Part shown: positions 50,273 to 64,000 of the stretch, piece by piece | How positions within the stretch are numbered: position 1 is the first letter of the stretch | Layout of the letters: every line of letters begins with the position of its first letter | Source: Gammaproteobacteria bacterium | Lineage (GTDB): Bacteria > Pseudomonadota > Gammaproteobacteria > Eutrophobiales > Eutrophobiaceae | DNA length: 64,000 nucleotides | Reading direction: 5' to 3' | NCBI GenBank assembly: GCA_965222155.1 | Contig: CBDCTH010000012.1 | Coordinates: forward strand, 384,001-448,000 | The notes under the pieces: model-generated | What the model saw: only the letters and a program-made list of their open reading frames with translations | Databases searched by the model: none | What the model was told of the DNA's origin: nothing | Translations under genes and position numbers: made by a program

Positions 50273-51526
50273 CAGGGCAAACGCATACTTTCATCCGGCT
50301 TGTCCAAACAGGATTTCAGCCCGTCTTTCATCACTCCACCCGGCCTGCTTGAGTTTCCCTCGCATACTGTTCTTCTGTGGGTGTAATCTCGCCAGGTTCA
50401 GACAGAAGCGCCGGATAATCCCCACGTTCTCCGCCCCGTCCCCTTTGCGGATCCGGCAATCCTCCTCCTTGAATGCCACGTCCAACACCCAATGCGCCTT
50501 GTTCTCCACCTCCCAATGCCGACGGATCCCCTGCGCCACCCGTTCAGCATCTAATGGCAGGGAACTGATATAGTACTGTGTCTCGGTCTCCACCTCCTGC
50601 CCCGGCAGGTGCCGTTCCCGCTCCATCTCAACCACCGTTTGCAGTCCCGGCCACTTGGCCGCCTCACTCACCCAGTCACTCACCGACACCTGCCGGCAGG
50701 TGCGCTTCTCCACCCGACCATGCCCCGCATCGACCTCCTCATACACCCCTGTCAGACCCGGTGTATCACGTCTAACCTTATGAAAGTACGCCTGTATTTC
50801 ACGCTGAAAGGTCTTGTGATTACCCTTCAGCGATAACGTGTAATCGCCCCCCTTCCCATGAATCTTGCGCGCTATCTTCTTCTGCGTATTCATCGCATCC
50901 GCGGTAATATGCGCCCCCTTTACCTGTAACAGTTCCAGCAACTCCATCACCGAGGCCTGCTCATTCTTCTTCCCCGACGACTTCATCTGCGCCAGCACCA
51001 ACCCGCATTCATGACCCCAGGCCGTGATGCTGTGCAAGGCCGCCTGCCGCACCCCGTCATGGGAACGCCTCAACGTCTTCCCATCCAACGCAATCTGTGC
51101 CTGTCCCCGTTCCCCGCGTACCTCATTCACCCAAGCAATGAACGCCCGGTTGAACTGCTCAGGGTCTATCGCACGCACCACCCGCGCAATCGTATCATCC
51201 ACCGGTACCCCGTTCGCAAACGGCCGGTATTGTCTCAACCAAACCAGCTTCTCATCGCCAAACTCCTTGATATCTTTCCACCCTTCCGCCCCCGATATGA
51301 CCGCACTCACCGTCAAAAACAGAATGTCCAACAGGTCATGACGCTTGTTGATATCACGCCGCGGGTCATCAATCGTCGCCAATTGTGACAGTAAACTCAT
51401 GGTGTTCTCCTCTTTTTGCGGTAATGACTGCTATGATCCACCCAAATTCCAGGAGTTCCCCACCTATCTATATCTCTTTGGAATAAAAAATACTCTGTTT
51501 ATGACTTAAAGTATGATCTTGCCCTG
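50273..51526 (-). mobile_element. ISAs1-family insertion sequence
   Basis: IRs cagggcaaacgcatacttt / aaagtatgatcttgccctg; 10-bp target duplication CCGTCAGTAA at 50263-50272 and 51527-51536. Confidence 0.95.
50291..51400 (-). CDS. ISAs1 transposase
   Basis: DPRRDINKRH, IALDGKTLR, TADAMNTQ, RRHWEVENKAHWVLDVAFKEE. Confidence 0.95.
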   Translation of the reverse strand: MSLLSQLATIDDPRRDINKRHDLLDILFLTVSAVISGAEGWKDIKEFGDEKLVWLRQYRPFANGVPVDDTIARVVRAIDPEQFNRAFIAWVNEVRGERGQAQIALDGKTLRRSHDGVRQAALHSITAWGHECGLVLAQMKSSGKKNEQASVMELLELLQVKGAHITADAMNTQKKIARKIHGKGGDYTLSLKGNHKTFQREIQAYFHKVRRDTPGLTGVYEEVDAGHGRVEKRTCRQVSVSDWVSEAAKWPGLQTVVEMERERHLPGQEVETETQYYISSLPLDAERVAQGIRRHWEVENKAHWVLDVAFKEEDCRIRKGDGAENVGIIRRFCLNLARLHPQKNSMRGKLKQAGWSDERRAEILFGQAG

Positions 51527-51632: not shown

Positions 51633-51705
51633 GGCCAGGTAGCTCAGTAGGTAGAGCAGGGGACTGAAAATCCCTGTGTCGGCAGTTCGATTCTGTCCCT
51701 GGCCA
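51633..51705 (+). tRNA. tRNA-Phe (GAA); CCA not encoded
   Basis: GGCCAGG acceptor stem, TAGCTCAGTAGGTAGAGC D-arm, CTGAAAA anticodon loop, GTTCGATTC T-loop, CCTGGCC-A. Confidence 0.97.
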
Positions 51706-51710
51706 TACTT
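51695..51710 (+). repeat. att core copy 1 (tRNA-Phe 3' end), GTCCCTGGCCATACTT
   Basis: Identical 16-mer at 54649, 56078, 60896 and 61987. Confidence 0.92.
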
Positions 51711-51747
51711 ATCTACAAATATTGACGCTGATGAGCGTCATTCTGCA

Positions 51748-51948
51748 CTATGTGGTTTCAAATTCCAGAGAGGACCATTTGATGCTGGAGGAACGCTTGG
51801 AAAGATTCAACATCTCTACGCCTACGAGTTCGTTGGCTTCATTGTAGTCGAGAACAACTCCTGGCGAGACCTCTTCTGATTCGACAATTTTTGAATCATC
51901 CAGACGCAGGTAGAGTGCGTCAGCTTCTTTATCAACGTGCAGTTTCAT
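51748..51948 (-). CDS. DUF2283-family putative antitoxin
   Basis: MKLHVDKEADALYLRL...ESEEVSPGVVLDY...LVGVEML. Confidence 0.85.
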   Translation of the reverse strand: MKLHVDKEADALYLRLDDSKIVESEEVSPGVVLDYNEANELVGVEMLNLSKRSSSIKWSSLEFETT

Positions 51949-52100
51949 AATTTTTCTCGCTTGCTTCGGTCAAAGAATACGCTTACCACCCGCCAGGGTG
52001 CACTCGGGTGTTTACTGCTACCCGTAAGGTGCGATCGCCATTTTCGGGGATGCGACGGAAAAATCGCTCTACAAACGGATCGTTCGGGTCCGGTGAAAGG
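51945..52100 (-). pseudogene. DUF4258-family putative toxin, 5'-truncated and frameshifted
   Basis: C-terminus PWRVVSVFFDRS; 1-nt deletion relative to the copy at 62237; 5' part replaced by an IS-end-like sequence. Confidence 0.65.
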
Positions 52101-52216
52101 GGGGTTTAAGGAGAAATAACAGGCATAAATGGCACATAAACTGAACTGGAACAAATAGTCAGGCAGGTCCGACCCTATCCTGCAAAATATCCTTATATGC
52201 CAGGTGCAGCTTCCTG

Positions 52217-52510
52217 TCAGGCTACTTCAAGTTTTTCGAAATCGTCGAGGTTGATCTTCTGCCGCGCTTCCCATAAATCATAGTTATCCTGCATTGACAA
52301 CCAGCTTTCCGGGGACCTGCCGATGACTTTGGACAGCTTGAGCGCCATAGTCGGCGTGATGCTGCTCTTGGCGTTGAGAATCCGGCTGATCACGGATTCA
52401 CTGACTCGTAACCTCTCAGCCAGTTCTTTCGCGCCGATGTTAAAGGGTTCCAGGTAGACCCGTTTGATAAACACTCCCGGATGCATGGGATTATGTTGCT
52501 CGATACTCAT
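52217..52510 (-). CDS. higA: HigA/VapI antitoxin
   Basis: NPMHPG...LAERLRVS...ITPTMALKLS...SPESWLSMQDNYDL. Confidence 0.92.
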   Translation of the reverse strand: MSIEQHNPMHPGVFIKRVYLEPFNIGAKELAERLRVSESVISRILNAKSSITPTMALKLSKVIGRSPESWLSMQDNYDLWEARQKINLDDFEKLEVA

Positions 52511-52788
52511 TAGTGATAATCCTCATAATCTACGGCATAGGCGTCGCTGTCCATGAACTCGAATATGATCCGCCAGTTGCCGCTTACGTTAATTGCCCAC
52601 TGCCCTCTCTTATCACCCTTGAGTGGGTGCATGCGCCAACCGGGTATATTCATATCCTCGATTGTGAACGCAGTATGCAAGGCCTGTAACCGTTCCTCAA
52701 TTCGCGCTTTATGGGTTGACTGAATACCGGCCGTGCTACCCGTGGTGAAGAATTTCTCTAATCCCTTATGCTTAAAGCTCCTGATCAT
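52510..52788 (-). CDS. higB: HigB (plasmid maintenance killer) toxin
   Basis: MIRSFKHKGLEKFF...HPLKGDKRGQWAINVSGNWRIIFEF...DYEDYH. Confidence 0.92.
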   Translation of the reverse strand: MIRSFKHKGLEKFFTTGSTAGIQSTHKARIEERLQALHTAFTIEDMNIPGWRMHPLKGDKRGQWAINVSGNWRIIFEFMDSDAYAVDYEDYH

Positions 52789-52856
52789 GACGGCTTGTAC
52801 TTTACACTTGCGCAAGTTGGAATTCAAGGATGAATTCACAGTTTAATTGTTCCTAA

Positions 52857-53602
52857 GGTACTGACAAATTAACTCCCGAAAATACATAATGCCGGTATGA
52901 ATATATACAAACGTCACCGGTTTCCACCCGATATCATCAGTTATGCAGTCTGGCTATATTTTCGATTCAATCTTAGCCACTGGGATATTGAAGACCTGCT
53001 GGCACAACGTGGAATAATCGTCAGCTATGAATCCATCAGGTTATGGTGCATCAAGTTTGGCCGGATTTATGCCAGACGGTTGAAGCGCCGACACACAGGT
53101 TATGGAGACACATTCTTCATGGATGAAGTCTTCGTGAAGATAAACGGCAAGCAGCAATATCTATGGCGAGCTGTTGACCAGGAGGGTGAAGTGGTTGATG
53201 TATTTCTACAGTCGCGTCGTGATGGGGTAGCGGCTAAACGATTCTTTAAACGCCTGCTGCGAAGACAGGATGAAGAGCCCAGGCAAATTGTAACCGATAA
53301 ATTACGACGCTATGGCATCGCGCAGCGTGCGCTGATCCCGGAGACTATCCATAACACAGCACAGTATGCCAATAACAGGGCGGAATTATCTCATCAGCCG
53401 ACCAGAGTCAGAGAACGCGGGATAAGGCGATTCAAGTCAACTGCGCAGGCTCAGCGATTTTTGAATGTCCACGCGGCAGTGTACAATCTTTTCAACCTTG
53501 GACGACATCTTGTAAGCGCCAGGCATTACAGAAAACTCAGGATAGATGCCTTTGGACAATGGACAATAGCCGTTGCTTGATTCCGGACAATGAATTTCTA
53601 CT
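52857..53602 (+). mobile_element. IS6-family element, right IR lost; transposase 52897..53580
   Basis: Left IR ggtactgacaaattaact; HRFPPDII, MDEVFVKING, VTDKL, NNRAELSHQP. Confidence 0.88.
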
Positions 53603-53751
53603 GTGACCTTCCCCCAATAAACTGGACCAATCTAAACTAGAGTTTTCCGCAATTTGGCCCTTCTGACCTGCCCCCTACGGATCAGACCGAATGGATGGGA
53701 TGAACTGAAGGGAGGGCGAAACTCCGAAGGGTGTATCTACGGGTCCTTCTC

Positions 53752-54111
53752 TCAGGTCTCGCCAATAAGACTTTCCAACGGAATGGACAGCTTGGAATGA
53801 AGGTTTCTTATCATGGCCAACGAGAGTTCACGGCGCCGGTTGAGGATGTCCGAAACCCTGCCCCGGTTGCCGATACAGGGCTCCAGGTCCTTTCTCGTCA
53901 GGTTCATTTGCTCCATCCTGAATTTTATGGCATCCACGGGGTCCGGCGGAGCAATCCGGTGATGCTTGTCTTCATAATCTTCAACTAGGATTAGCAGGAT
54001 ATCCAGTTTGTCACCCGCTGCCGTCCCTTCTTCGGCTCCCCACAACCTTTCGATTTCTGCAAGGGTCTGGTCGTAATCCTGTTCATTTCTTATGGGTTGA
54101 ATATCCATCAT
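53752..54111 (-). CDS. higA: HigA-like HTH antitoxin
   Basis: IQPIRNEQDY...PDPVDAIKFRMEQ...RVSDILNRRRELSLAMIR. Confidence 0.9.
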   Translation of the reverse strand: MMDIQPIRNEQDYDQTLAEIERLWGAEEGTAAGDKLDILLILVEDYEDKHHRIAPPDPVDAIKFRMEQMNLTRKDLEPCIGNRGRVSDILNRRRELSLAMIRNLHSKLSIPLESLIGET

Positions 54112-54409
54112 ACGTCTCCGCATCAATAGTGTCATATTGCTTGTGAGTGCCGATAAACTTCACAAAACAGGCCTGTCTCTGGTAATCGATAGCAACAACC
54201 AGCCGGTACTTATTCCCTGCTATATTGAAAACCACACGGTTGTTTTTGAGGATACTCGCCGCCCCGAACTGTGCTTTCAACTCCTGGGGCTTAGTCCATG
54301 AAGCCCTTATTACTTCAAAATACCAAGACTCCAATGGCCCCTTCGCATCAGCATATTCAGGCACCGACTCCCAGAACTCCCTTAATGACCTTTTTGCGAT
54401 TACCCGCAC
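54083..54409 (-). CDS. higB: HigB-family toxin
   Basis: MRVIAKRSLREFW...RVVFNIAGNKYRLV...FIGTHKQYD. Confidence 0.9.
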   Translation of the reverse strand: MRVIAKRSLREFWESVPEYADAKGPLESWYFEVIRASWTKPQELKAQFGAASILKNNRVVFNIAGNKYRLVVAIDYQRQACFVKFIGTHKQYDTIDAETYDGYSTHKK

Positions 54410-54483
54410 AGGGATTATTATAGATGATTCCTGATTGGGATCAAGCTAAGATTTGAGTAGTGTCAAATCACCAAACTCGATAT

Positions 54484-54664
54484 TTACTGATAATTCAATA
54501 TCTTGCACGTCCTCACGAAGTTTACATATCTCTCCCGCAGAGACGTAAAATCATACCGGATATATTGTTGGTACAGATGTTGGGATAATAAAAATAGTGA
54601 AGTTATTAATTACAATAAATCAATAAGTTATAAATGTAATACTATTACGTCCCTGGCCATACTT
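54484..54664 (+). other. attR-like site 2: conserved arm plus tRNA-Phe 3'-end core
   Basis: TGTTGG direct repeats 12 bp apart (54566, 54578), IHF consensus match AATCAATAAGTTA (54618-54630), core 54649-54664. Confidence 0.8.
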
Positions 54665-54694
54665 ATCCGCCTGAATCGAATCGGCCATTATAGG

Positions 54695-54800
54695 GTGAGG
54701 CGCCGTGAAACGCTGATTGCCCGGCCGCGTTTTGGCTATCGGCGTCTGCATGTGTTATTGCAGCGGGAAGGCTGGGCGGCGAATCACAAGCGCATTAATT
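54695..54800 (+). pseudogene. IS3-family OrfB fragment
   Basis: RPRFGYRRLHVLLQREGWAANHKRI. Confidence 0.7.
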
Positions 54801-54854
54801 TAGAGAAGAGTATAACCTGGGGTTGAGAACGGTGCTGATGAGCGTCATTCTGCG

Positions 54855-55055
54855 CTACATGGTTTCAAATTCCAGGGAGGACCATTTTATGCTGGAGGAA
54901 CGCTTGGAAAGATTCAACATCTCTAAGCCTACGAGTTCATTGGCTTCATTGTAATCAAGAACTACTCCGGGCGAGACCTCTTCTGATTCGACATTTTTTG
55001 AATCATCCAGGCGCAGGTAGAGTGCGTCAGCTTCATTATCAACGTGCAGTTTCAT
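54855..55055 (-). CDS. DUF2283-family putative antitoxin (diverged third copy)
   Basis: MKLHVDNEADALYLRL...; no DUF4258 partner upstream. Confidence 0.82.
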   Translation of the reverse strand: MKLHVDNEADALYLRLDDSKNVESEEVSPGVVLDYNEANELVGLEMLNLSKRSSSIKWSSLEFETM

Positions 55056-55061
55056 AAACAA

Positions 55062-55397
55062 TCAGGAATAAATTTCAAGGCAACTGCTCTCGTGATCATT
55101 ATAGAAGTCATGAATTCTATCCTGGTTGTTGATCAGGAGGCCAAGTACATACCACTTGGGCTTGTTACCACATTTGAGCCAGATAACTTTGGGCGGTTTG
55201 CCATGTAACAGGCTGAGTTCGTGAAAATCTGAGTCCTTGGTAACAATCGTATAACCATTATCTTTGGCAAATCGCCAGATAGTCATATCGTCTGCCTGCT
55301 CAAGACCCAGTGATCTGACTTGCGTTGAACCGGGGTAGATGGACTTGATCTTGTCCAGCAACCGGTACGGCAGGTTCTGGTCCAAGAGCAACTTCAA
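55062..55397 (-). CDS. DUF5615 PIN-like toxin
   Basis: MKLLLDQNL...DD..IW..A......IVTKDSDF...GKPPKVIWL. Confidence 0.88.
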   Translation of the reverse strand: MKLLLDQNLPYRLLDKIKSIYPGSTQVRSLGLEQADDMTIWRFAKDNGYTIVTKDSDFHELSLLHGKPPKVIWLKCGNKPKWYVLGLLINNQDRIHDFYNDHESSCLEIYS

Positions 55398-55621
55398 GTC
55401 TGTGCTATCGTAGATAACTGGTGTTCACGGTCGGCAGCAAAGGCAAGACAAGCTCTGATATCATCCCTGGTCAGTTCCGGATAATCGTCCAGAATCTCAG
55501 TTTCGCTCATACCTGACGCCAACCAGTCCAGCACATCATAGACGGTGATCCGCATGGAGCGGATACACGGCTTGCCGCCACGCTTACCTGGTTCGATGGT
55601 AATGTAATTTTGATAGTTCAT
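55394..55621 (-). CDS. DUF433 antitoxin
   Basis: PGKRGGKPCIRSMRITVYDVL...EILDDYPELT..DIRACLAFAA. Confidence 0.9.
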   Translation of the reverse strand: MNYQNYITIEPGKRGGKPCIRSMRITVYDVLDWLASGMSETEILDDYPELTRDDIRACLAFAADREHQLSTIAQT

Positions 55622-55710
55622 TATGTGGTGCACCACATTGAGTAACAGCATAAACCTTAATCACGATCCTTTACAAGTAATACTACTCATTTAATTGGCT
55701 TAGTCCCATC

Positions 55711-55906
55711 TGACATGCCCCCTGCGGATCAGACTGAATGAATGGGATGAACCGCAGGCAGGGCGAAACACCGAATGGCGGATCTACGGGTCCTGCCCTC
55801 AGGTCTCGCCAATAAGACTTTCCAACGGAATGGACAGCCTGGAATGAAGGTTTCTTATCATGGCCAACGAGAGTTCCAAGCGCCGGTTCAGAATATCCGA
55901 AACCCT
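55711..55906 (-). pseudogene. diverged copy of the higA 3' end and trailer (about 53664-53860)
   Basis: Shared tcaggtctcgccaataagactttccaacggaatggacagc and adjacent tgac.tgcccc..cggatcaga. Confidence 0.75.
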
Positions 55907-55924
55907 CATACATCTCCACAATAA

Positions 55925-56093
55925 TTACTGATAAATCAATGTCTTGCACGTTCTCACGAAGTTTATATATCGTCCCCGCAGAGAAGTAAAGCCATATCGG
56001 AATAAATGTTGTAACGGCATTTATTAAACCAATAAAAATGCATTTATAACAGTATCTTATCAGTCCAGTACTATTACGTCCCTGGCCATACTT
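55925..56093 (+). other. attR-like site 3
   Basis: Arm homologous to 54484-54600 (ttactgataa.tcaat.tcttgcacg..ctcacgaagttt); core 56078-56093. Confidence 0.78.
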
Positions 56094-56195
56094 TTGCCTG
56101 AATCGAACCGGCCATTGTCAGGCCATGCGCTGTTCTGCGAGAGTCGGCGCATCTTGAGTGTCGTGACTTGGTTACGACTGGCAGTCGTACTTTTT

Positions 56196-56396
56196 TCACT
56201 TCACAGCCTCAATCAAATCGATATCTTTTCTAAGCATCTCATTGATCAATTCATTCACCTCGACGCCTTTCGATGCGGCCCTCTCTTTAAGGTAATCAAG
56301 TACGTCATCGTCCAGGTAGACAGGCAGGTTAAATTTAGCTCCGGGCCGGTAAAATTTACCGCGCTCGCCTTCGGTAAAATCGTATTCGTCTCTCAT
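56196..56396 (-). CDS. BrnA/CopG-like antitoxin (orphan)
   Basis: MRDEYDFT.GERGKFY...VYLDDDVLDYL...LINEMLR; no toxin gene upstream. Confidence 0.75.
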   Translation of the reverse strand: MRDEYDFTEGERGKFYRPGAKFNLPVYLDDDVLDYLKERAASKGVEVNELINEMLRKDIDLIEAVK

Positions 56397-56397
56397 T

Positions 56398-56550
56398 GGG
56401 TATTGACAAGTTAACTAAAAAATCAAGGATTTCTTGATTTTTCATACGCTATTGAAAAATAAATAGCTACGATAATCAACAAGTTGAATTTTGTGCGCGA
56501 ACACAAACTTTAGCTAAAACGGTGATTTTTCCGTTAACTTGTCAATACCC
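56398..56550. mobile_element. 153-bp MITE with IS6-like terminal inverted repeats
   Basis: Perfect 18-bp IR gggtattgacaagttaac / gttaacttgtcaataccc; resembles the IS6 IR ggtactgacaaattaac. Confidence 0.75.
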
Positions 56551-56575
56551 ATTTTTCAGCGGGTATCGAAAAATA

Positions 56576-56866
56576 TCAGGACGCATGAGGTCTGGCCATC
56601 AGGTCAACCCCCAGTGACTTCATGACTGCAAGCATGGTTTTAAGCCTCGGATTCCCTTTCTCACTGAAAGATCGATAAAGCTGTTCGCGTGACAACCCAG
56701 TCTCCCTGGCAAGTTCTGTCATGCCCTTGACGCGAGCTGCCACACCCATCGCCTTGGCAATGTATACAGCGTCCCCGGTTTCCAGGGCGTCAGTAACAAA
56801 TTCTGCTATTGTTTCAGGGCTGGTCAGGTAATCAGCCGGGTCAAATTCAGTAAATGTTTCAGCCAT
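56576..56866 (-). CDS. addiction-module antidote (HI1420-type)
   Basis: FDPADYL...AARVKGMTELARETGLSREQLYRSFSEKGNP. Confidence 0.9.
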   Translation of the reverse strand: MAETFTEFDPADYLTSPETIAEFVTDALETGDAVYIAKAMGVAARVKGMTELARETGLSREQLYRSFSEKGNPRLKTMLAVMKSLGVDLMARPHAS

Positions 56867-57119
56867 TTTGTTTCCTCCAATCGGTTAAAATCCGGCATGC
56901 AGTATCAATGTCCCTGCGTTGTGTACCCTTATCGCCTCCGCAAAGTAGGATGATCATTGTGTCTCCCCGTTGATGGAAATAGACCCGGTATCCCGGCCCG
57001 TAGTGTATCCGTAGTTCACTCACTCAGTTGCCGACAGGCGCAACATCACCCGGTAACCCTTCCATCAGCCGGTTGATCCGGGAGACAATTCTGGCTCTTC
57101 CGGTTTCAATCTTTTTCAC
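56859..57119 (-). pseudogene. HI1419-type RelE toxin with a nonsense codon and an N-terminal internal deletion
   Basis: VKKIETGRARIVSRINRL...PVGN*VSELRIHYGPGYRVYF...LLCGGDKGTQ; TGA at 57024-57026. Confidence 0.85.
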
Positions 57120-57223
57120 TGGTTTATTGTAGTTTATTGACTACACATAAGCAATGTTTTTCTGTGTAGGCAAAATAAAATGTTTGAATTCCAGGGACAC
57201 GAATTCCAGGGACACAATACTTA

Positions 57224-58791
57224 GTCGTCCCTGAATAACCCCAAAAGCTATTCTAACCTGTTGATTATATTTATATAAGTTACGTTTTTTTCTGGACTGA
57301 TAGTGCCGGTTTTGGTATCATGGACCTTCATTTTCTTGCAATATCGGAGATAAAAATGACGCCCAGACAACCTGACGCCGCTACCCGCACCGCAACCGAC
57401 CTGTTCCGCGAACGCCTGGACACTATGCTCAACCAACGCCATGCCTTATATCGCCTGGCCGACCTGATAGAGTGGTCGGTGTTTGATAAGGAGTTCGGGT
57501 CACTGTACTGCCCGGATAACGGTTGTCCGGGGAAACCGACCCGGTTGATGGTGGGGTTGCAGTATCTCAAGCATGTGTATGGGTTATCGGACGAGGCAGT
57601 GGTGTCGGGCTGGGTGGAGAATCCGTATTGGCAGTATGTCTGCGGGGCGGTGTACTTTCAGCATGAGGCGCCGGTAGACCCGAGCAGCCTGACGCGCTGT
57701 CGCCAACGCATTGGGGAGTCGGGGTGTGCGCGGATTTTACAGGTGACGGTGGCGCTGGGGGTGCAGAGCAAGGCAGTGAAGACGACGGACTTCAAACGGG
57801 TGACGGTGGACACCACGGTACAGGAGATAAGCGGTGAGTTATCCGACCGACAGCAAGTTGCTGAATCGGTCCCGGGTGCGGTGGGTACGGTTATGTCACA
57901 AACAGGGGGTGGTGTTACGCCAGAGCACTGCCCGCAAGGGGCCGCGGGCGTTACAACAGGCGAACCGCTACGGTCATGCCAAACAGTATCGGCGGCTGCG
58001 GCGCGAGGTGAAGCGGTTACGCACGTATCTGGGCCGGGTGGTGCGTGACAGTGAGCGTAACACCGCTGGCAATCCGGCACAGCAGCGTATCTTTGCCGAT
58101 GAATTGGCCTTAGCCAAGCGGCTGCTGGCGCAGCAGAAACAGGATAAACACAAGCTGTACAGCCTGCATGCGCCGGAGGTGGAATGTATCAGTAAGGGCA
58201 AGGTGGCTAAACGTTATGAATTCGGGGTGAAGGCGAGCATTGCCACCACGAACAAGAGCAACTTCGTGGTGGGGGGTATGGCCTTGCCGGGCAGTCCGTA
58301 TGACGGGCACACCTTGAAGGAAGCCCTGGCACAGGTGCGGCGCTTGACCGGGACGAGTATTGACGAGGCGTTTGTGGACAGGGGCTATCGGGGGCATGAT
58401 GAAACGGCGAGTACGGTGTATATCTCCGGGCAGAAGCGCGGCATTAAAACCCAACGATTGAAACGGTCGCTCAAGCGCCGCCAGGCAATTGAACCGGTCA
58501 TCGGTCATTTGAAAGCCGACGGGCTGTTAGGGCGCAATCACCTGACAGGGACACAAGGCGACCAATTAAATGTCCTGTTGAGTTGTGCCGGCCACAACCT
58601 GCGCCTGGTCCTGAGACGGCTCAGGTTTTTTTGTCTCGAAAAAAGGATACTTATACTGGCTTGGCTCCGCGTGTTGGTGCCCGCAGCGCGTCTGTCAGGC
58701 ATCGGCACACAGTTGAACCAAAAGCTGGCTGGTCTGGCTCCGCTACCGACGTCCATAATGGCAGCCTGAAATCGGGTTTTTCAGGATCGAC
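57224..58791 (+). mobile_element. IS5-family element with a frameshifted transposase (57320..58769)
   Basis: IRs gtcgtccctgaataaccc / gggtttttcaggatcgac; WVENPYWQY, VDTTVQE, frameshift near 57830, VDRGYRG, IEPVIGHLK. Confidence 0.88.
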
Positions 58792-58880
58792 AAGTTAAGG
58801 GTACTCTGATAAGCGAACCATGAAACAGACGTGGTGCTAACAATATTTCGAATCGCCCAGGATTTAATTTCGAGCCTACC

Positions 58881-59138
58881 ATGAGATTAACGGACGTTAA
58901 AGAAGTTATAGGTCCGGACGGTACGATTATTAAAGCTGACCCATTCGGTAATAATCTTGCTATTGCCTGTGAAAATGAGAATTGCGAATATCCAGTACTT
59001 TTGATTGCTCGCAAACATCAACGAGGAAACAGTAGAGGTAATCCCGCTGTGTGTAGACGTTGTCGTAGCGCCTATTACCTGGATACTGATCGCTCTAATT
59101 CAGAAACACTATACATTCACAAGTTGCCTAAACAATAA
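58881..59138 (+). CDS. small hypothetical protein, possible zinc ribbon
   Basis: 85 aa with CENENC and CRRC. Confidence 0.5.
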   Translation: MRLTDVKEVIGPDGTIIKADPFGNNLAIACENENCEYPVLLIARKHQRGNSRGNPAVCRRCRSAYYLDTDRSNSETLYIHKLPKQ

Positions 59139-59155
59139 ACCAATGGTCTGTATAG

Positions 59156-59852
59156 GGTACTGACAAATTAACTCTTTTGGCCCAGTAGAAACTTATTGTT
59201 AGGAATCAAGCGATGGCTGTTGTCCATAGTCCAAAGGCATCTATCCTGAGTTTTTTGTAATGCTCAGCGCTTACAAGATGTCGTCCAAGGTTGAAAAGAT
59301 TGTACACTGCCGCGCGGACATCCAGAAATTGCTGAGCCTGCGCTGTTGACTTGAATCGCCTCATCCCGCGTTCTCTGACTCTGGTCGGCTGATGAGATAA
59401 TTCCGCCCTGTTATTGGCATACTGTGCTGTGTTATGTATAGTCTCCGGGATCAGCGCACGCTGCGCGATGCCATAGCGTCGTAATTTATCGGTTACAATT
59501 TGCCTGGGTTCTTCACCCTGTCTTCGCAGCAGGCGTTTGAAGAATCGTTTAGCCGCTGCCCCATCACGGCGCGATTGAATAAATACATCAATAACTTCAC
59601 CCTCCTGGTCAACAGCCCACCACAGATATTGCTGATTGCCGTTTATCTTCACGAAGACTTCATCTATGTAGAATGTGTCTCCATAACCTGTGTGCCAGCA
59701 GGTGTGCCAGCAGGTCTTCAATATCCCGGTGGCTAAGATTGAATCGAAAGTAAAGCCAGACAGCATAGCTGATGATAGCGGGTGGAAACCGGTGACGTTT
59801 AGTTGTATTCATACCGGCATTATCCATTTTCGGGAGTTAATTTGTCAGTACC
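59156..59852 (-). mobile_element. IS6-family element with an internally deleted transposase pseudogene
   Basis: Both IRs present (ggtactgacaaattaact); homologous to the 52857 copy but with a deletion and a cctgctggcaca duplication near 59690-59715. Confidence 0.88.
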
Positions 59853-59859
59853 CAAGGGG

Positions 59860-60015
59860 GCGCCGACTGACGGCCGTGCTTGGTGCGGCCGGCGGGTGGT
59901 TCGGGGCGGTTCCTGGCTCAGTGATCCGCGGGCCCTGCGTTCCGCCGACCGTTACGGGTTCACCCGCTCGTCCCGCGGCAGCGATATCGGCTTCCGCCTG
60001 GCCCAGGACAAGTAG
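59860..60015 (+). pseudogene. formylglycine-generating enzyme (FGE-sulfatase) domain, C-terminal remnant
   Basis: RVVRGGSW...LRSADR...IGFRLA; cut by IS6. Confidence 0.7.
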
Positions 60016-60149
60016 AACGAAGTTGAGATACGATGCCGGTTGAGCAGGCTTCGGACTATTTCGAACGCTTGTGATTCAGGGCTTGATAGCTGATGATAAT
60101 CAACCCGGCAATGAATACACCAAAGGTGAAAATGAACAGGTATTCCATG

Positions 60150-60377
60150 TTATAACTCCTCTAATCGGTCAAGACAGGTAAAGACACGACGGTTGATGAA
60201 AACCAGAATGATTGTCACGACAATAACGGACATTGAGCAGAGTATCAGGATGGATTGCCTGGCTGTTTCAAAGTTCTGAACAAACCACGCCAGCAACGAG
60301 AGGTCTGTGACAGTCATAATAGCGAAAATAATCTTGTACCATCCAATTTCCTGCTCAATTCGGTTAACCTCGGACAT
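60150..60377 (-). CDS. small 2-TM hypothetical protein
   Basis: 75 aa, two hydrophobic helices. Confidence 0.6.
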   Translation of the reverse strand: MSEVNRIEQEIGWYKIIFAIMTVTDLSLLAWFVQNFETARQSILILCSMSVIVVTIILVFINRRVFTCLDRLEEL

Positions 60378-60789
60378 GTAGCAATTATAGCACAGCCTGA
60401 GTCGCTCCCGATGTCTATTCCCGAGTATGGAACGCGAAAACCAGCACTATAGCACTATAGGGTCGGACTGGTCTAACTACTTGTTTCAAATTAGTTTATA
60501 TGCCAACTATGCCTGTTATTTCCTCTTAGATCCCCCTTTTTGCCATCAAAATCGAGGTTGTAAAAACTCCATGTCTGTTTGACGGCATTACTCTCCTGAT
60601 TCGAAGTGGTCTGCCTGTGCTGCATCTGATACTTCCTCCTTAAAGTCCTGTATTGACATATGAAAAACACAGTCTAAGCGTAGAACAGCACGTTTTTTAG
60701 ACATGGTTTTTCTTTATTTTCAGTAGCTTCTGCCAGGCTGGCCTGGTCTGATTCTGTACTGTAGTTCGCGGCAAATCTGTTCAGGGGCA

Positions 60790-60911
60790 CGTCAGAAATC
60801 ATGCCGGATAAATTGTTGGGACAGATGTTGGGATAAAAAAATTAGTAAGTAAATAATTAATACTAATCAACAGGTTATAAATATAATACTATTACGTCCC
60901 TGGCCATACTT
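60790..60911 (+). other. attR-like site 4
   Basis: TGTTGG repeats at 60814 and 60826, IHF match AATCAACAGGTTA 60865-60877, core 60896-60911. Confidence 0.8.
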
Positions 60912-61055
60912 ATCTACAAATACTGACGCTGATCTATCCTCAATAATCCGAGCCAAATCAGTTTAAAGGGAGAAGACCATTTAAGTTATTTTCTAACGTA
61001 ATCACTGGTATCGCTTTAAGGGTGCAGGTCACTCATCAGGAGCGATTCAATAGTT

Positions 61056-61499
61056 TCATTCGGCAACTTTGACCTCGGTCTCCATGAGAGGCGCAAAAGG
61101 ATTAATCACACGCAAGCCATCGTAATCCTGCTCGCTGCTCATGTCTTCGGAGTACACGGCATCGCAGCCGCAGGCGCGCGCTGCCGCCAAAATGGCGCTG
61201 TCCCAATAAGACAACCCGAAGCGCTCACGGATTGCGAACGCAGCGCGCATCACATCACTCGTTACAGATTGCACACGAAAGCGGTGTAGGGACTCTACAA
61301 AATTCACGGCTTCGCGGTGTGTGAGCGCGCCCAATCGCGAAGCACGGGTTGCCTGTACGTAGAATTCCTGCAGGACCTGTACGGATAGGGCAAGATCGCG
61401 CGCCGTAAGCAAGCTGATAGCGCGTCGCTGTTTGTCCGCGTCCGCGCCGCTGACGGCATAAATCAGAACATTGGTGTCAAGGAAGCGCAGCGCGCTCAT
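61056..61499 (-). CDS. vapC: VapC PIN-domain toxin
   Basis: FLDTNVLIYA, SVQVLQEFY, LSYWDSAI, YSEDM; start placed at MSALRF. Confidence 0.9.
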   Translation of the reverse strand: MSALRFLDTNVLIYAVSGADADKQRRAISLLTARDLALSVQVLQEFYVQATRASRLGALTHREAVNFVESLHRFRVQSVTSDVMRAAFAIRERFGLSYWDSAILAAARACGCDAVYSEDMSSEQDYDGLRVINPFAPLMETEVKVAE

Positions 61500-61740
61500 G
61501 CAACGCGCTACGAGGAAGATTGTCGGTTGCTCGTAACCCCGCACCGCGGGCGCGGATATCTTCCAGAGTCCTGTCCTGGAGTTGACTGAGCCGATCGAAC
61601 TCGGTCCCGATAACTCGTCCCTGGACCAATGCCAGGAGATATTCGCGCACAAGAGCTGATACCGATGTCCCCGTTTCAGCCGCTTTGACGCGGGAGAGCC
61701 GGTATGTTTCGTCGTCTACGGATACAGTGATATTTTTCAT
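61477..61740 (-). CDS. vapB: RHH/CopG-like antitoxin
   Basis: MKNITVSVDDETYR..RVKAAE.GTSVSALVREYL; overlaps vapC. Confidence 0.85.
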   Translation of the reverse strand: MKNITVSVDDETYRLSRVKAAETGTSVSALVREYLLALVQGRVIGTEFDRLSQLQDRTLEDIRARGAGLRATDNLPRSALHERAALP

Positions 61741-61899
61741 CGACACAGTTTCACATTTATTGTGCTACACAGGTTAGACCAGGTACTGACCAACGTCAAG
61801 CAAGTCTTCAACTAAATTTCTGACCCTGGACAAACACATGTCGCAGGGGGCTGGTCAGTGGGCGGTTAACCAGCCAATATAGGCCGGAACGGTTAAAAA

Positions 61900-62002
61900 T
61901 TCATGTTGGTGCAAATGTTGGTTAAATTAAATTATAAGAATTATTATTTTAATAAAAACAATAAGATAAAATAATAATTATATTGCGTCCCTGGCCATAC
62001 TT
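61900..62002 (+). other. attR-like site 5
   Basis: TGTTGGT repeats at 61904 and 61916, AT-rich arm, core 61987-62002. Confidence 0.78.
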
Positions 62003-62039
62003 ATCTATAAATATTGACGCTGATGAGCGTCATTCTGCA

Positions 62040-62240
62040 CTATGTGGTTTCAAATTCCAGAGAGGACCATTTGATGCTGGAGGAACGCTTGGAAAGATTC
62101 AACATCTCTACGCCTACGAGTTCGTTGGCTTCATTGTAGTCGAGAACAACTCCTGGCGAGACCTCTTCTGATTCGACAATTTTTGAATCATCCAGACGCA
62201 GGTAGAGTGCGTCAGCTTCTTTATCAACGTGCAGTTTCAT
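62040..62240 (-). CDS. DUF2283-family putative antitoxin (duplicate)
   Basis: Protein identical to 51748..51948. Confidence 0.85.
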   Translation of the reverse strand: MKLHVDKEADALYLRLDDSKIVESEEVSPGVVLDYNEANELVGVEMLNLSKRSSSIKWSSLEFETT

Positions 62241-62392
62241 AATTTTTCTCGCTTGCTTCGGTCAAAGAATACACTTACCACCCGCCAGGGTGCAACTCGG
62301 GTGTTTACTGCTACCCGTAAGGTGCGATCACCATTTTCGGGGATGCGACGGAAAAATCGCTCTACAAACGGATCGTTCGGGTCCGGTGAAAG
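62237..62392 (-). pseudogene. DUF4258-family putative toxin, 5'-truncated
   Basis: PDPNDPFVERFFRRIPENGDRTLRVAVNTRVAPWRVVSVFFDRS; N-terminus replaced by an IS-end-like sequence. Confidence 0.7.
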
Positions 62393-62508
62393 GGGGTTTA
62401 AGGAGAAATAACAGGCATAAATGGCACATAAACTGAACTGGAACAAATAGTCAGGCAGGTCCGACCCTATCCTGCAAAATATCCTTATATGCCAGGTGTA
62501 GCCTCCTG

Positions 62509-62802
62509 TCAGGCTACTTCAAGTTTTTCGAAATCGTCGAGGTTGATCTTCTGCCGCGCTTCCCATAAATCATAGTTATCCTGCATTGACAACCAGCTTT
62601 CCGGGGACCTGCCGATGACTTTGGACAGCTTGAGCGCCATAGTCGGCGTGATGCTGCTCTTGGCGTTGAGAATCCGGCTGATCACGGATTCACTGACTCG
62701 TAACCTCTCAGCCAGTTCTTTCGCGCCGATGTTAAAGGGTTCCAGGTAGACCCGTTTGATAAACACTCCCGGATGCATGGGATTATGTTGCTCGATACTC
62801 AT
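62509..62802 (-). CDS. higA: HigA/VapI antitoxin (duplicate)
   Basis: Protein identical to 52217..52510. Confidence 0.92.
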   Translation of the reverse strand: MSIEQHNPMHPGVFIKRVYLEPFNIGAKELAERLRVSESVISRILNAKSSITPTMALKLSKVIGRSPESWLSMQDNYDLWEARQKINLDDFEKLEVA

Positions 62803-63080
62803 TAGTGATAATCCTCATAATCTACGGCATAGGCGTCGCTGTCCATGAACTCGAATATGATCCGCCAGTTGCCGCTTACGTTAATTGCCCACTGCCCTCT
62901 CTTATCACCCTTGAGTGGGTGCATGCGCCAACCGGGTATATTCATATCCTCGATTGTGAACGCAGTATGCAAGGCCTGTAACCGTTCCTCAATTCGCGCT
63001 TTATGGGTTGACTGAATACCGGCCGTGCTACCCGTGGTGAAGAATTTCTCTAATCCCTTATGCTTAAAGCTCCTGATCAT
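62802..63080 (-). CDS. higB: HigB toxin (duplicate)
   Basis: Protein identical to 52510..52788. Confidence 0.92.
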   Translation of the reverse strand: MIRSFKHKGLEKFFTTGSTAGIQSTHKARIEERLQALHTAFTIEDMNIPGWRMHPLKGDKRGQWAINVSGNWRIIFEFMDSDAYAVDYEDYH

Positions 63081-63134
63081 GACGGCTTGTACTTTACACT
63101 TGCGCAAGTTGGAATTCAAGGATGAATTCGCAGT

Positions 63135-63540
63135 TAATTCGGGACACCCATAAAAAAGTTAATTCAGGACACCCATAAAATGGGGACAGGCACAAGCCTG
63201 TCTGCAGTACAGGCTCAGACCAGTCCAGCCTGACAGGAACCTACTGATAATAAAGGGAAACTGTCACAAACGACGTGCTGTCCCAGGCTTGAACTGCGAT
63301 TTTCATACGCCGAAACAGGACTTTAACCCGGATTTCTCACCAGATGATGCGATGATCGCGTAGGATCTTTGATGTGCACCTTCCATCTCTCCGGGGACGG
63401 ATTTCAAATCCGTCCCCTTATGCAGTACGGGCGCCCGGCGAAGGATATTTGGGGTCAGAGGATATTTAGGGTCAGAGTAAAAATACAGTCAGTTTGGCAA
63501 GTGGTAGTGGCTTGTTGTTGAGTATTTTTACTCTGACCCC
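63135..63540. repeat. cluster of REP-like elements
   Basis: ggacacccataaaa twice (about 63141-63180, compare 38442); palindrome 63393-63417 with flanks shared with 9155-9236; GGGTCAGAGTAAAAATA...TATTTTTACTCTGACCCC at 63469-63540. Confidence 0.85.
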
Positions 63541-63589
63541 AAACTCTCATGATCAGGGCTTTGCACACCCCGACTGCATGTAACTGAGA

Positions 63590-63845
63590 AACTCCAAGGA
63601 TGCGGGAGACCCGCATCCCCGGAGTTGGCTAACGCCCCGTTCTGGTGCACTATACGACTGCGGCAGCGGGACCGAGGACGCTTTTATTTCGGTGCCTTTT
63701 GAGCCCGACCCCAAACTGTTCCCGGTCAACGGCTTCGAACCCCGCCCTGTACCCGGCGCCGCCGAGGACGCACAGCAAAATGAACCCCTCCCGCACGGGA
63801 TGCGAGTCAGCTATCCGTTGCCCCCCGCGGCCGCATGTTGTTACA
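63590..63845 (+). ncRNA. candidate IS110 bridge RNA
   Basis: Non-coding IS110 left end with a strong 5' hairpin (63590-63626) and GACCCCAAACT (63707-63717) matching the flank at 63535-63545; boundaries are inferred. Confidence 0.5.
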
Positions 63846-63873
63846 CCATCACCACTACTACGGAGGAAGCGTT

Positions 63874-64000
63874 ATGTCACACAGTGTACACACTGATACC
63901 CTGCACGTCATCCATGCCCGCGCCGCGGGCCTTGACGTGCATAAAATGCAGATCACCGCGACCGTGCGTCTGGCGCGGCCCGGCAGCGAGGCCGAGACCC
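63874..64000 (+). CDS. IS110-family recombinase/transposase (5' part, runs off the window)
   Basis: RBS ggagg; MSHSVHTDTLHVIHARAAGLDVHKMQITATVR contains the GxDxxK first DEDD motif. Confidence 0.8.
   Translation, partial: MSHSVHTDTLHVIHARAAGLDVHKMQITATVRLARPGSEAET

Follow-up and report, generated by a model that had tools for sequence, protein, structure and literature searches.

How did a single tRNA gene come to be followed by several perfect copies of its own 3' end, with toxin-antitoxin (TA) genes between them and no integrase? The question is raised by a 64,000-nucleotide stretch (the window) of a gammaproteobacterial genome of the family Eutrophobiaceae (assembly GCA_965222155.1, contig CBDCTH010000012.1, here C12, positions 384,001 to 448,000), in which a tRNA-Phe gene stands at the head of such an array. 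A preliminary description, made from the letters of the window alone, had seen in it non-autonomous cassettes bounded by attachment (att) sites and stacked by an integrase acting in trans. Our analysis bears out the units and their boundaries; that single cassettes move in trans is something that we infer. The reading that we favor, with a probability of roughly 0.7, is that the locus arose by tandem accretion of non-autonomous TA mini-cassettes resembling cis-mobilizable elements (CIMEs), which were moved in trans or in cis by an integrase that is now absent, and that insertion sequences (IS) then enlarged and fused them.

Attachment sites of the tRNA-Phe array

The core, GTCCCTGGCCATACTT, is a 16-mer found exactly at five positions of the window, all on the plus strand (Table 1), where 0.02 occurrences are expected by chance; allowing up to two mismatches reveals no further site in the window. 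Past the window end by 8.5 kb, the same strand carries a sixth exact copy at C12:456491 (window coordinate 72491), and these six are the only copies in the whole genome (4.55 Mb, 12 contigs). The preliminary description had placed the five cores and the four spacings between them exactly, and had taken the fifth unit to be open-ended: the sixth core closes it. The array thus occupies 20.9 kb, with six cores in direct orientation delimiting five units of 2954, 1429, 4818, 1091 and 10,504 bp. Sequence following core 6 is conserved in relatives, in many of which it aligns with the region downstream of tRNA-Phe, and in one congener (G008) the matching sequence comes straight after the tRNA: judged by these alignments, it is the ancestral chromosomal flank.

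The tRNA-Phe gene, the only one of the genome, has no encoded CCA (GGCCA/TACTT), a state shared by three of the 46 tRNA genes, this one included; across the genus CCA is encoded in seven of 20 tRNA-Phe genes. An island at tRNA-Phe in the congener G022 (see below) supplies GGCCACCATACT, so that the cassette core resembles that site minus the CCA. The array has a cost for its host, in that a cassette-type core leaves the sole tRNA-Phe gene without an encoded CCA end. Directly upstream of the gene lies an ISAs1-family transposase (378 bits; 50291-51400, minus strand), and beyond ~170 bp the upstream flank differs from that of most congeners.

Misassembly is a familiar hazard wherever sequences repeat, and this assembly, in 12 contigs, has an estimated contamination of 7%. 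That the cores reflect an assembly artefact or chance recurrence is nevertheless barely credible: five matches stand against the 0.02 expected, and the same architecture is present in several single-contig congener genomes and in one metagenome contig, that is, in several independent assemblies. Moreover, contigs from the public run holding the window (X8) cover the units without differences at an even depth of ~115-130; one of them spans 60903-62016, running from within core 4 through unit 4 to past core 5.

A homologous arm of ~130 bp (the P arm) precedes all five non-tRNA cores. In three cases it contains a pair of TGTTGG repeats 12 bp apart, starting at 54566, 60814 and 61904 (83, 82 and 83 bp ahead of the core); across the 64 kb, TGTKGK-N6-TGTKGK is matched at these three places alone, as compared to 0.12 matches expected. 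In two of the five arms, those ahead of 56078 and 72491, just one repeat survives: a TGTTGT at 56007 is found 71 bp ahead of the core at 56078. Matches to the consensus of integration host factor (IHF) occur at 54618 and 60865, the window holding eight in total versus 2.3 expected. The repeats, both IHF matches and two classes of post-core sequence had all been noted in the preliminary description and are real; what it had not recognized is that the arm is common to every non-tRNA core.

Alignment of the five arms with seven from relatives (12 sequences, mean identity 67%) shows which positions are invariant or nearly so: both TGTTGG-type repeats, the AATCAATARGTTA block (the IHF-like site) and TACTATT. 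Read towards the core, the arm has TGTTGG-type repeats near -83 and -71, then AT-rich spacer sequence, an IHF-like site near -31 and finally TACTATTRC. On the other side of the core the short P' arm is of two types. One, TCGCCTGAATCGAACCGGCC, belongs to units 2 and 3 and is common in relatives; the other, ATCTACAAATATTGACGCTGAT, belongs to units 1, 4 and 5, with a terminator-like hairpin for minus-strand genes at 51723-51740 and 62015-62032. In a unit, then, the core is followed by a short P' arm, the cargo and a P arm of ~130 bp, and since every unit ends in a P arm plus core, each internal junction is attP-like. At such a site the N-terminal domain of an integrase would bind the arm repeats, IHF would bend the AT-rich arm, and strand exchange would take place in or beside GTCCCTG, where TACTATTAC and GCCATACTT (5/9 matching) are putative imperfect inverted core-binding sites.

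Other interpretations were set aside. With a promoter in the P arm in view, a promoter and terminator scan did not rise above shuffles (21 promoter-like sites versus 15.5 expected); an Rfam scan returned the tRNA alone, and the arm-plus-core pattern had no match in viral contigs of the kind expected for a phage or satellite origin. Its one metagenome match is the same sequence as in congener G016.

Cassettes and integrases across the genus

The single-copy tRNA-Phe gene was located in 20 of 23 genomes of the genus, and P arms are found downstream of it in nine of the 20. Counting between successive cores or arm ends gives 22 units, of which half (11) measure 0.7-1.5 kb (for example 1059, 1098 and 1057 bp in G022; 1514 and 1057 bp in G016). 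Nine of these 11 contain a gene of a recognized TA family, two being without a family match; where both ends are intact, both arms are kept. An integrase is present in just one of the 22 units, the island of G022.

A cassette of ~1.06 kb encoding a 127-aa protein and HigB_toxin – part of unit 1 here – recurs in G022, G016 and G014. Between G022 and G016 it is 97.2% identical over 1090 bp, with homology beginning 11 nt ahead of the left core and ending 6 nt past the right core, while the neighbors on either side are different; in G014 the same cassettes are arranged in yet another, third order. A contig from another public run (X12) carries a HI1420 cassette, a P arm, a core and a DUF2283 cassette, an order absent here. 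The boundaries of the units in relatives therefore coincide with the core, as the preliminary description had supposed, and the same units are found there not as large islands with integrases of their own but as integrase-free cassettes of ~1.06-1.1 kb in differing orders (G022, G016, G014).

Further TA cargo in relatives comprises BrnT/BrnA, RES/ParS, RelE/HTH and YafQ-like/HTH pairs. Nor is the arrangement restricted to tRNA-Phe: at other tRNA-derived cores in G013, G002, G018 and G009, tandem P arm plus core pairs stand 1.7-2.4 kb apart, with RES/ParS plus TacA, Fic, TacA-GNAT and AbiEii/AbiEi as cargo. A model of the arm finds matches in 13 of 21 other genomes of the genus; elsewhere in the order (99 genomes, 33 genera) it finds none. 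In the present genome the 3' end of tRNA-Leu(CAA) (C12:3196968-3197054) is repeated 3.9 kb downstream, directly behind a similar arm with TGTTGG/TGTGGG repeats, and delimits an integrase-free unit. The 3' end of tRNA-Thr(CGT) (C10:28338-28413) is repeated at 6.7 kb; by reading, the first open reading frames (ORFs) of that unit resemble a VapBC pair. The basic units would appear to be TA mini-cassettes of ~1.05-1.5 kb that encode no recombinase and are CIME-like by function.

That no integrase is visible in any unit was already part of the preliminary description, and the array has no match to PF00589, either in a profile search of the whole genome or in domain scans of 30 ORFs in and just past it. 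The genome has six PF00589 matches, none within ~1.9 Mb of the array on its contig. Two ~300-aa proteins are, by size and score, taken to be XerC and XerD; two are Cre-like tyrosine recombinases of ~330 aa (C12:2409265-2410290 and C4:433078-434073). Adjacent proteins of 743 and 429 aa (C4:336399-340491) give weak tyrosine-recombinase matches, and a similar pair exists in G015 (C4:173498 and C4:175632). A tblastn search for the integrase of G022 yielded no homologue in this genome (best match 26 aa, E 0.031). Together, domain scans, profile search and tblastn rule out an integrase hidden in or near the array.

The presence of these recombinases allows a different explanation, namely a dedicated cassette system, a true functional analogue of the integron, run by a resident recombinase encoded elsewhere, such as either Cre-like enzyme. 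The two Cre-like proteins and the 429-aa/743-aa pair are the candidates that it can point to, but none is encoded near the array, and no core-like sequence adjoins their genes: the 11-mer GTCCCTGGCCA has three other copies in the genome, with unrelated flanks. Their sequences have no evident N-terminal arm-binding domain (no domain scan was run), which would leave the arm repeats unexplained, and the arm design follows the P4-type clade in all five integrase-bearing islands examined, as set out next. We regard such a system as very improbable.

The search for a tyrosine integrase flanked by the same arms, suggested in the preliminary description, succeeded at the tRNA-Phe gene of G022. There a 399-aa integrase begins 158 bp past the tRNA and has the domains Arm-DNA-bind_3, Phage_int_M and Phage_integrase, that is, the P4 type; a TGTTGG-N6-CGTGGG pair stands immediately ahead of its start codon. 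The island of ~12.3 kb, which also encodes a weak match to the MobA/VirD2 relaxase, a methylase with a SmaI-like nuclease as a restriction-modification pair, and DUF2726, terminates in the same P arm and core as the cassettes. Homologues of its integrase are found in nine of the 23 genomes, the present one not being among them. Integrases 70-72% identical to it adjoin tRNA-Leu genes in G022, G018, G013 and G015 (four of four loci examined), and their islands end in the same arm design in all four cases, the tRNA-Leu 3' end being repeated after the arm in three. Because arm design and P4-type integrase occur together in five of five integrase-bearing islands, the arm is a signature of the integrase clade. 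To judge from this association, the arms of the array are the docking site of one P4-type tyrosine integrase clade that is common in the genus, and the enzyme of G022 is a candidate trans-acting integrase for the cassettes.

A tyrosine recombinase of 423 aa is present in four copies with identical scores in G015 (C1:97253, C1:526578, C1:751332 and C7:411022), one of them ~3.5 kb upstream of tRNA-Phe, a pattern suggestive of a multi-copy element mobilized by a tyrosine recombinase.

The most serious alternative is that the units are decayed remnants: full-size islands would have arrived in succession and been whittled in place to their TA modules, later differences among genomes would be due to homologous recombination at arm plus core, and the mini-units would never have been substrates of an integrase. 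Decay is the accepted origin of CIMEs (PMC5704250); fusion and truncation by IS are evident in this very array, and the genome has no integrase. In addition, junctions share a long identical stretch of just ~25-40 nt around the core, so that homologous exchange would break there too. However, independent decay in place predicts ragged ends, whereas 11 of 22 units fall within 0.7-1.5 kb, and those of them whose two ends are intact keep both arms. One cassette retains both its boundaries from one context to another, the arm repeats and IHF-like site are conserved while the remainder of the arm diverges, and TA mini-units of this kind are also found at other att cores. On this evidence we consider decay unlikely as the whole explanation.

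Several observations nevertheless tell against accretion of mobile mini-cassettes. No excision or circular junction was found, and for X8 no core-to-core deletion is among the joints listed (15 of 47); the junction data come from assembled contigs, which drop rare forms and are silent on rare excision, and three joints with sides of just 20-27 nt (51525>63211, 52181>63206 and 51705>63524) were disregarded. The 127-aa/HigB_toxin cassette is 86.7% identical between the present genome and G022, and the only alignable chromosomal flank (163-168 nt, including the tRNA) is ~85-86% identical: divergence of the cassette resembles that of the flank, so the cassettes may have been inherited vertically from a genus ancestor, with later loss and rearrangement. 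The mini-cassettes have arm repeats in the P arm only, whereas the integrase-bearing island has a pair in its P' arm too, and a lambda-type reaction may need repeats on both sides; two of the five arms here are themselves short of a repeat. The five units include just one clean single-pair mini-cassette, unit 4 (unit 2, though small, contains extra fragments), and the BrnT/BrnA cassette of G022 is oppositely oriented. Finally, the ORF lists of the four integrase-bearing tRNA-Leu islands (no family scan) include no obvious TA pair beside the P arm, which leaves an origin of cassettes by simple deletion undocumented; the G022 island has an unannotated 110-aa/88-aa pair in that position. No forms intermediate between integrative and conjugative or integrative and mobilizable elements and the cassettes were found. 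It is the missing excision product, the similar divergence of cassette and flank, and the lack of P' arm repeats that keep decay alive as an explanation.

Accretion of mini-cassettes could proceed as follows. The integrase of an incoming mobilizable island (such as that by tRNA-Phe in G022) would recombine the cores, and cassettes would enter or leave singly, as P-core-P' circles, or along with the island. Joint entry with an island is the accretion model for CIMEs as outlined in PMC5704250. Lying between direct repeats, cassettes should frequently be deleted; those with an addictive TA pair would outlast such deletion. The near-exclusive TA cargo may thus reflect survivorship, because cells losing these cassettes would die. 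The array is now dormant, as this genome has no integrase.

A more ambitious proposal, which we advance only tentatively and at somewhat less than even odds, is that the mini-cassettes form a distinct class of ~1-kb elements whose sole "mobility gene" is a complete arm-bearing attP. They would be parasites of P4-type island integrases, inserting singly at tRNA-Phe and, where their cores match, at tRNA-Leu and further tRNA genes. The lethality of their loss would build up integron-like arrays able to outlast the integrase. This would be a second route to bacterial cassette arrays, independent of the first, and its products are screened out by the very design of present-day island finders. If cassettes do move by themselves, an integrase docking site and an addictive gene pair suffice for a successful mobile element, and tRNA genes gather cassette arrays, in the fashion of integrons, by ordinary attP x attB chemistry. 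If the units are mere fossils, the locus is still a clean record of TA pairs surviving the decay of islands.

Cargo and insertion sequences of the five units

Domain scans confirm the TA families named in the preliminary description, and all TA genes of the array within the window lie on the minus strand, as stated there; the fifth unit also holds genes unrelated to TA systems. Assignment as predicted type II/IV TA pairs is based on adjacent small genes that match toxin and antitoxin families. The scans find DUF2283 three times and the HigB-like/HTH_3 pair twice in the array.

Table 1. Coordinates of the tRNA gene, cores, units and main features within the window
Feature	Position	Strand	Remarks
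tRNA-Phe(GAA)	51632/51633-51705/51706	+	sole tRNA-Phe of the genome; attB and left end of array
Core copy 1	51695-51710	+	final 11 nt of tRNA plus 5 nt downstream
Unit 1	51711-54648	+	two fused cassettes: DUF2283 and HigA/HigB-like, then 127-aa/HigB_toxin
DUF2283 protein, 66 aa	51748-51948	-	domain scan
HigB-like toxin (52510-52839) and HTH_3 antitoxin (52217-52510)	52217-52839	-	
IS6-family element	52857-53640	+	DDE_Tnp_IS240 transposase 52897-53580; left inverted repeat present, right end truncated
HigB_toxin PF09907 (54083-54409) and 127-aa partner (53752-54135)	53752-54409	-	
P arm of unit 1	54521-54648	+	TGTTGG at 54566 and 54578; IHF-like site 54618
Core copy 2	54649-54664	+	
Unit 2	54665-56077	+	1429 bp core to core; P' arm GCCTGAATCGAA; DUF2283, DUF5615/DUF433
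P arm of unit 2	55963-56077	+	single repeat, TGTTGT
Core copy 3	56078-56093	+	
Unit 3	56094-60895	+	4818 bp; 66-aa weak ribbon-helix-helix (RHH) protein, dnstrm_HI1420 antitoxin, Gp49/HI1419 toxin fragment, 75-aa ORF
IS5-like element of unit 3, frameshifted	57320-58769		
IS6-family copy of unit 3	59156-59855		
P arm of unit 3	60779-60895	+	
Core copy 4	60896-60911	+	
Unit 4	60912-61986	+	1091 bp; RHH VapB 61477-61746 (-), PIN VapC within 61056-61652 (-)
P arm of unit 4	61875-61986	+	
Core copy 5	61987-62002	+	
Unit 5, start	62003-64000	+	10,504-bp unit, continuing to window coordinate 72490 outside the window

Insertion sequences (IS6, IS5-like and IS110) have enlarged, fused and partly duplicated the array. 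The junction within unit 1 is occupied by the IS6-family element that lacks its right end, and what is missing there is the first ~78 bp of the second cassette, together with the P arm and core that stood ahead of it. Unit 2 contains, besides its TA genes, a fragment of an IS3-like OrfB (weak HTH_21 match) and a remnant of the 127-aa gene. Beyond the window unit 5 continues with an IS110 transposase, a PIN protein, an M24/Creatinase_N fragment, an HTH protein, an Nramp-like protein and a second IS5-like element before its P arm and core copy 6. Units 1 and 5 share core, DUF2283, an 87-nt repeat and the HigA/HigB module (51690-52840 versus 61982-63130; 98-99% identity over ~1.1 kb); both copies of the module stop ~10-15 bp upstream of higB, and the IS-derived sequence that takes over from there is not the same in the two.

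The ~87-nt repeat is dispersed and sharply delimited (GGGGGTTTTAAGGAGAAATAACAGGC...GGTCCGACCCTATCCTG); BLAST gives 22 hits to it in the genome, and Rfam has no match for it. Copies lie at 52096-52197, 62389-62489 and 60457-60556 (minus strand) and, just past the array, at ~73320-73418; clusters occur on C12 at 364 kb, 602-608 kb, 867-869 kb, 1285-1288 kb and 1337-1339 kb, and many copies are preceded by a conserved stretch of ~27 nt. As an attC-like second site it is rejected for now: the copies at C12:1285-1288 kb are not in TA cassettes, and the ORFs around them have N-termini which, by reading, resemble the IS5-like transposase of the window.

Two further repeats concern the IS of the array. 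Between the RHH and HI1420 genes a gene-less element of ~155 bp (56398-56552) has inverted repeats resembling the ends of the IS6 family (GGGTATTGACAAGTTAAC...); it looks like a miniature derivative of an IS6-family element. At 63132-63180, where the module copy of unit 5 ends, a 24-nt sequence (AGTTAATTCGGGACACCCATAAAA) is repeated twice in tandem, and a similar doubled motif (GAATTCCAGGGACAC) is found at 57184-57215 beside the IS5-like element; both are possibly IS subterminal repeats.

Comparison with known systems

The preliminary description called the array integron-like, which holds as an analogy only. Like the array, integrons, and attC clusters that lack an integrase, consist of small cassettes that mostly point the same way and that each bring a recombination site; among the cassettes of sedentary chromosomal integrons those with TA genes are prominent, and arrays of this type can persist without an adjacent integrase. 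Unlike integrons, the present array has no IntI, attI or Pc and is targeted to a tRNA gene: among the six PF00589 matches of the genome there is no IntI beside an attI/Pc (no IntI-specific model was run). The sites differ as well. Those of the array are attP-type duplexes of ~150 bp with direct-repeat cores, arm repeats and an IHF-like site, whereas the attC sites of integrons are folded, single-stranded imperfect palindromes. The orientation of the TA operons and one promoter-like site upstream of higB (not above shuffles) suggest that the cassettes have promoters of their own.

A closer parallel is with CIMEs, which together with their tandem accretion are known from the ICESt1-related elements of Streptococcus thermophilus (cited in PMC5704250). 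CIMEs have flanking attL and attR sites and no integration or transfer genes. With related elements they form tandems at a target gene's 3' end, and they rely on an integrase that a related element brings in – the dependence that we propose for the cassettes. The units here likewise have att sites related to those of an integrative element and no integration or transfer genes. They differ from the CIMEs of that source in their size (0.7-1.5 kb), in a cargo of almost only TA pairs, in being stacked up to five or six deep, and in that eight of nine arrays have no integrase-bearing partner and units of the same kind recur at several tRNA-derived sites. The host, moreover, belongs to an uncultured gammaproteobacterial genus, the integrase is P4-type, and mobilization of the cassettes is deduced.

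Arrays at ssrA in Dehalococcoides are comparable in having many units downstream of one small RNA gene, with conserved sequence beside the repeat: tandem units are bounded by direct repeats of the ssrA 3' end, and 15 of them, without an integration module, were proposed to be CIMEs (PMC3146451). Those arrays rely on a serine recombinase, DsiB; dehalogenase operons are the cargo of their units, which are large, and no strain has duplicate islands. The present array has instead the arm sites of a tyrosine integrase, tiny TA units, and one module duplicated at 99%.

With the P4-type islands at tRNA genes collected by Islander (PMC4383910), the array shares a tRNA gene and a displaced 3' fragment in direct orientation. 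In that catalogue, crossover lies in the T-stem/acceptor-stem region and tandem arrays are known, tandems of three or more numbering just four among 3919 islands; an integrase is demanded of each island, as is a length of at least 2 kb. The five units here have the tRNA and the direct repeat of its 3' end and lack the integrase inside, which among all the units considered only the first unit of G022 possesses. Filters of this kind would leave units such as these unrecorded, and with them their frequency in other bacteria. Mobilization of one unit by the integrase of another is itself on record: the GIsul2 integrase is reported to mobilize a CR2-sul2 unit (PMC9376610). There, as proposed here, site-specific recombination by the integrase of an island mobilizes a second unit, the difference being that CR2-sul2 is a single resistance unit in pathogens rather than a TA cassette array at a tRNA gene.

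The open PMC and bioRxiv literature (subscription journals being outside its scope) yielded no description of ~1-kb att cassettes with TA cargo alone at tRNA genes. Integrase-less, att-flanked units stacked at a target gene are already known, as PMC5704250 and PMC3146451 make clear. What is new here is the size of the units (~1 kb), their almost wholly TA cargo, their recurrence across the genus and at several tRNA-derived sites, and the fact that most arrays are free of an integrase.

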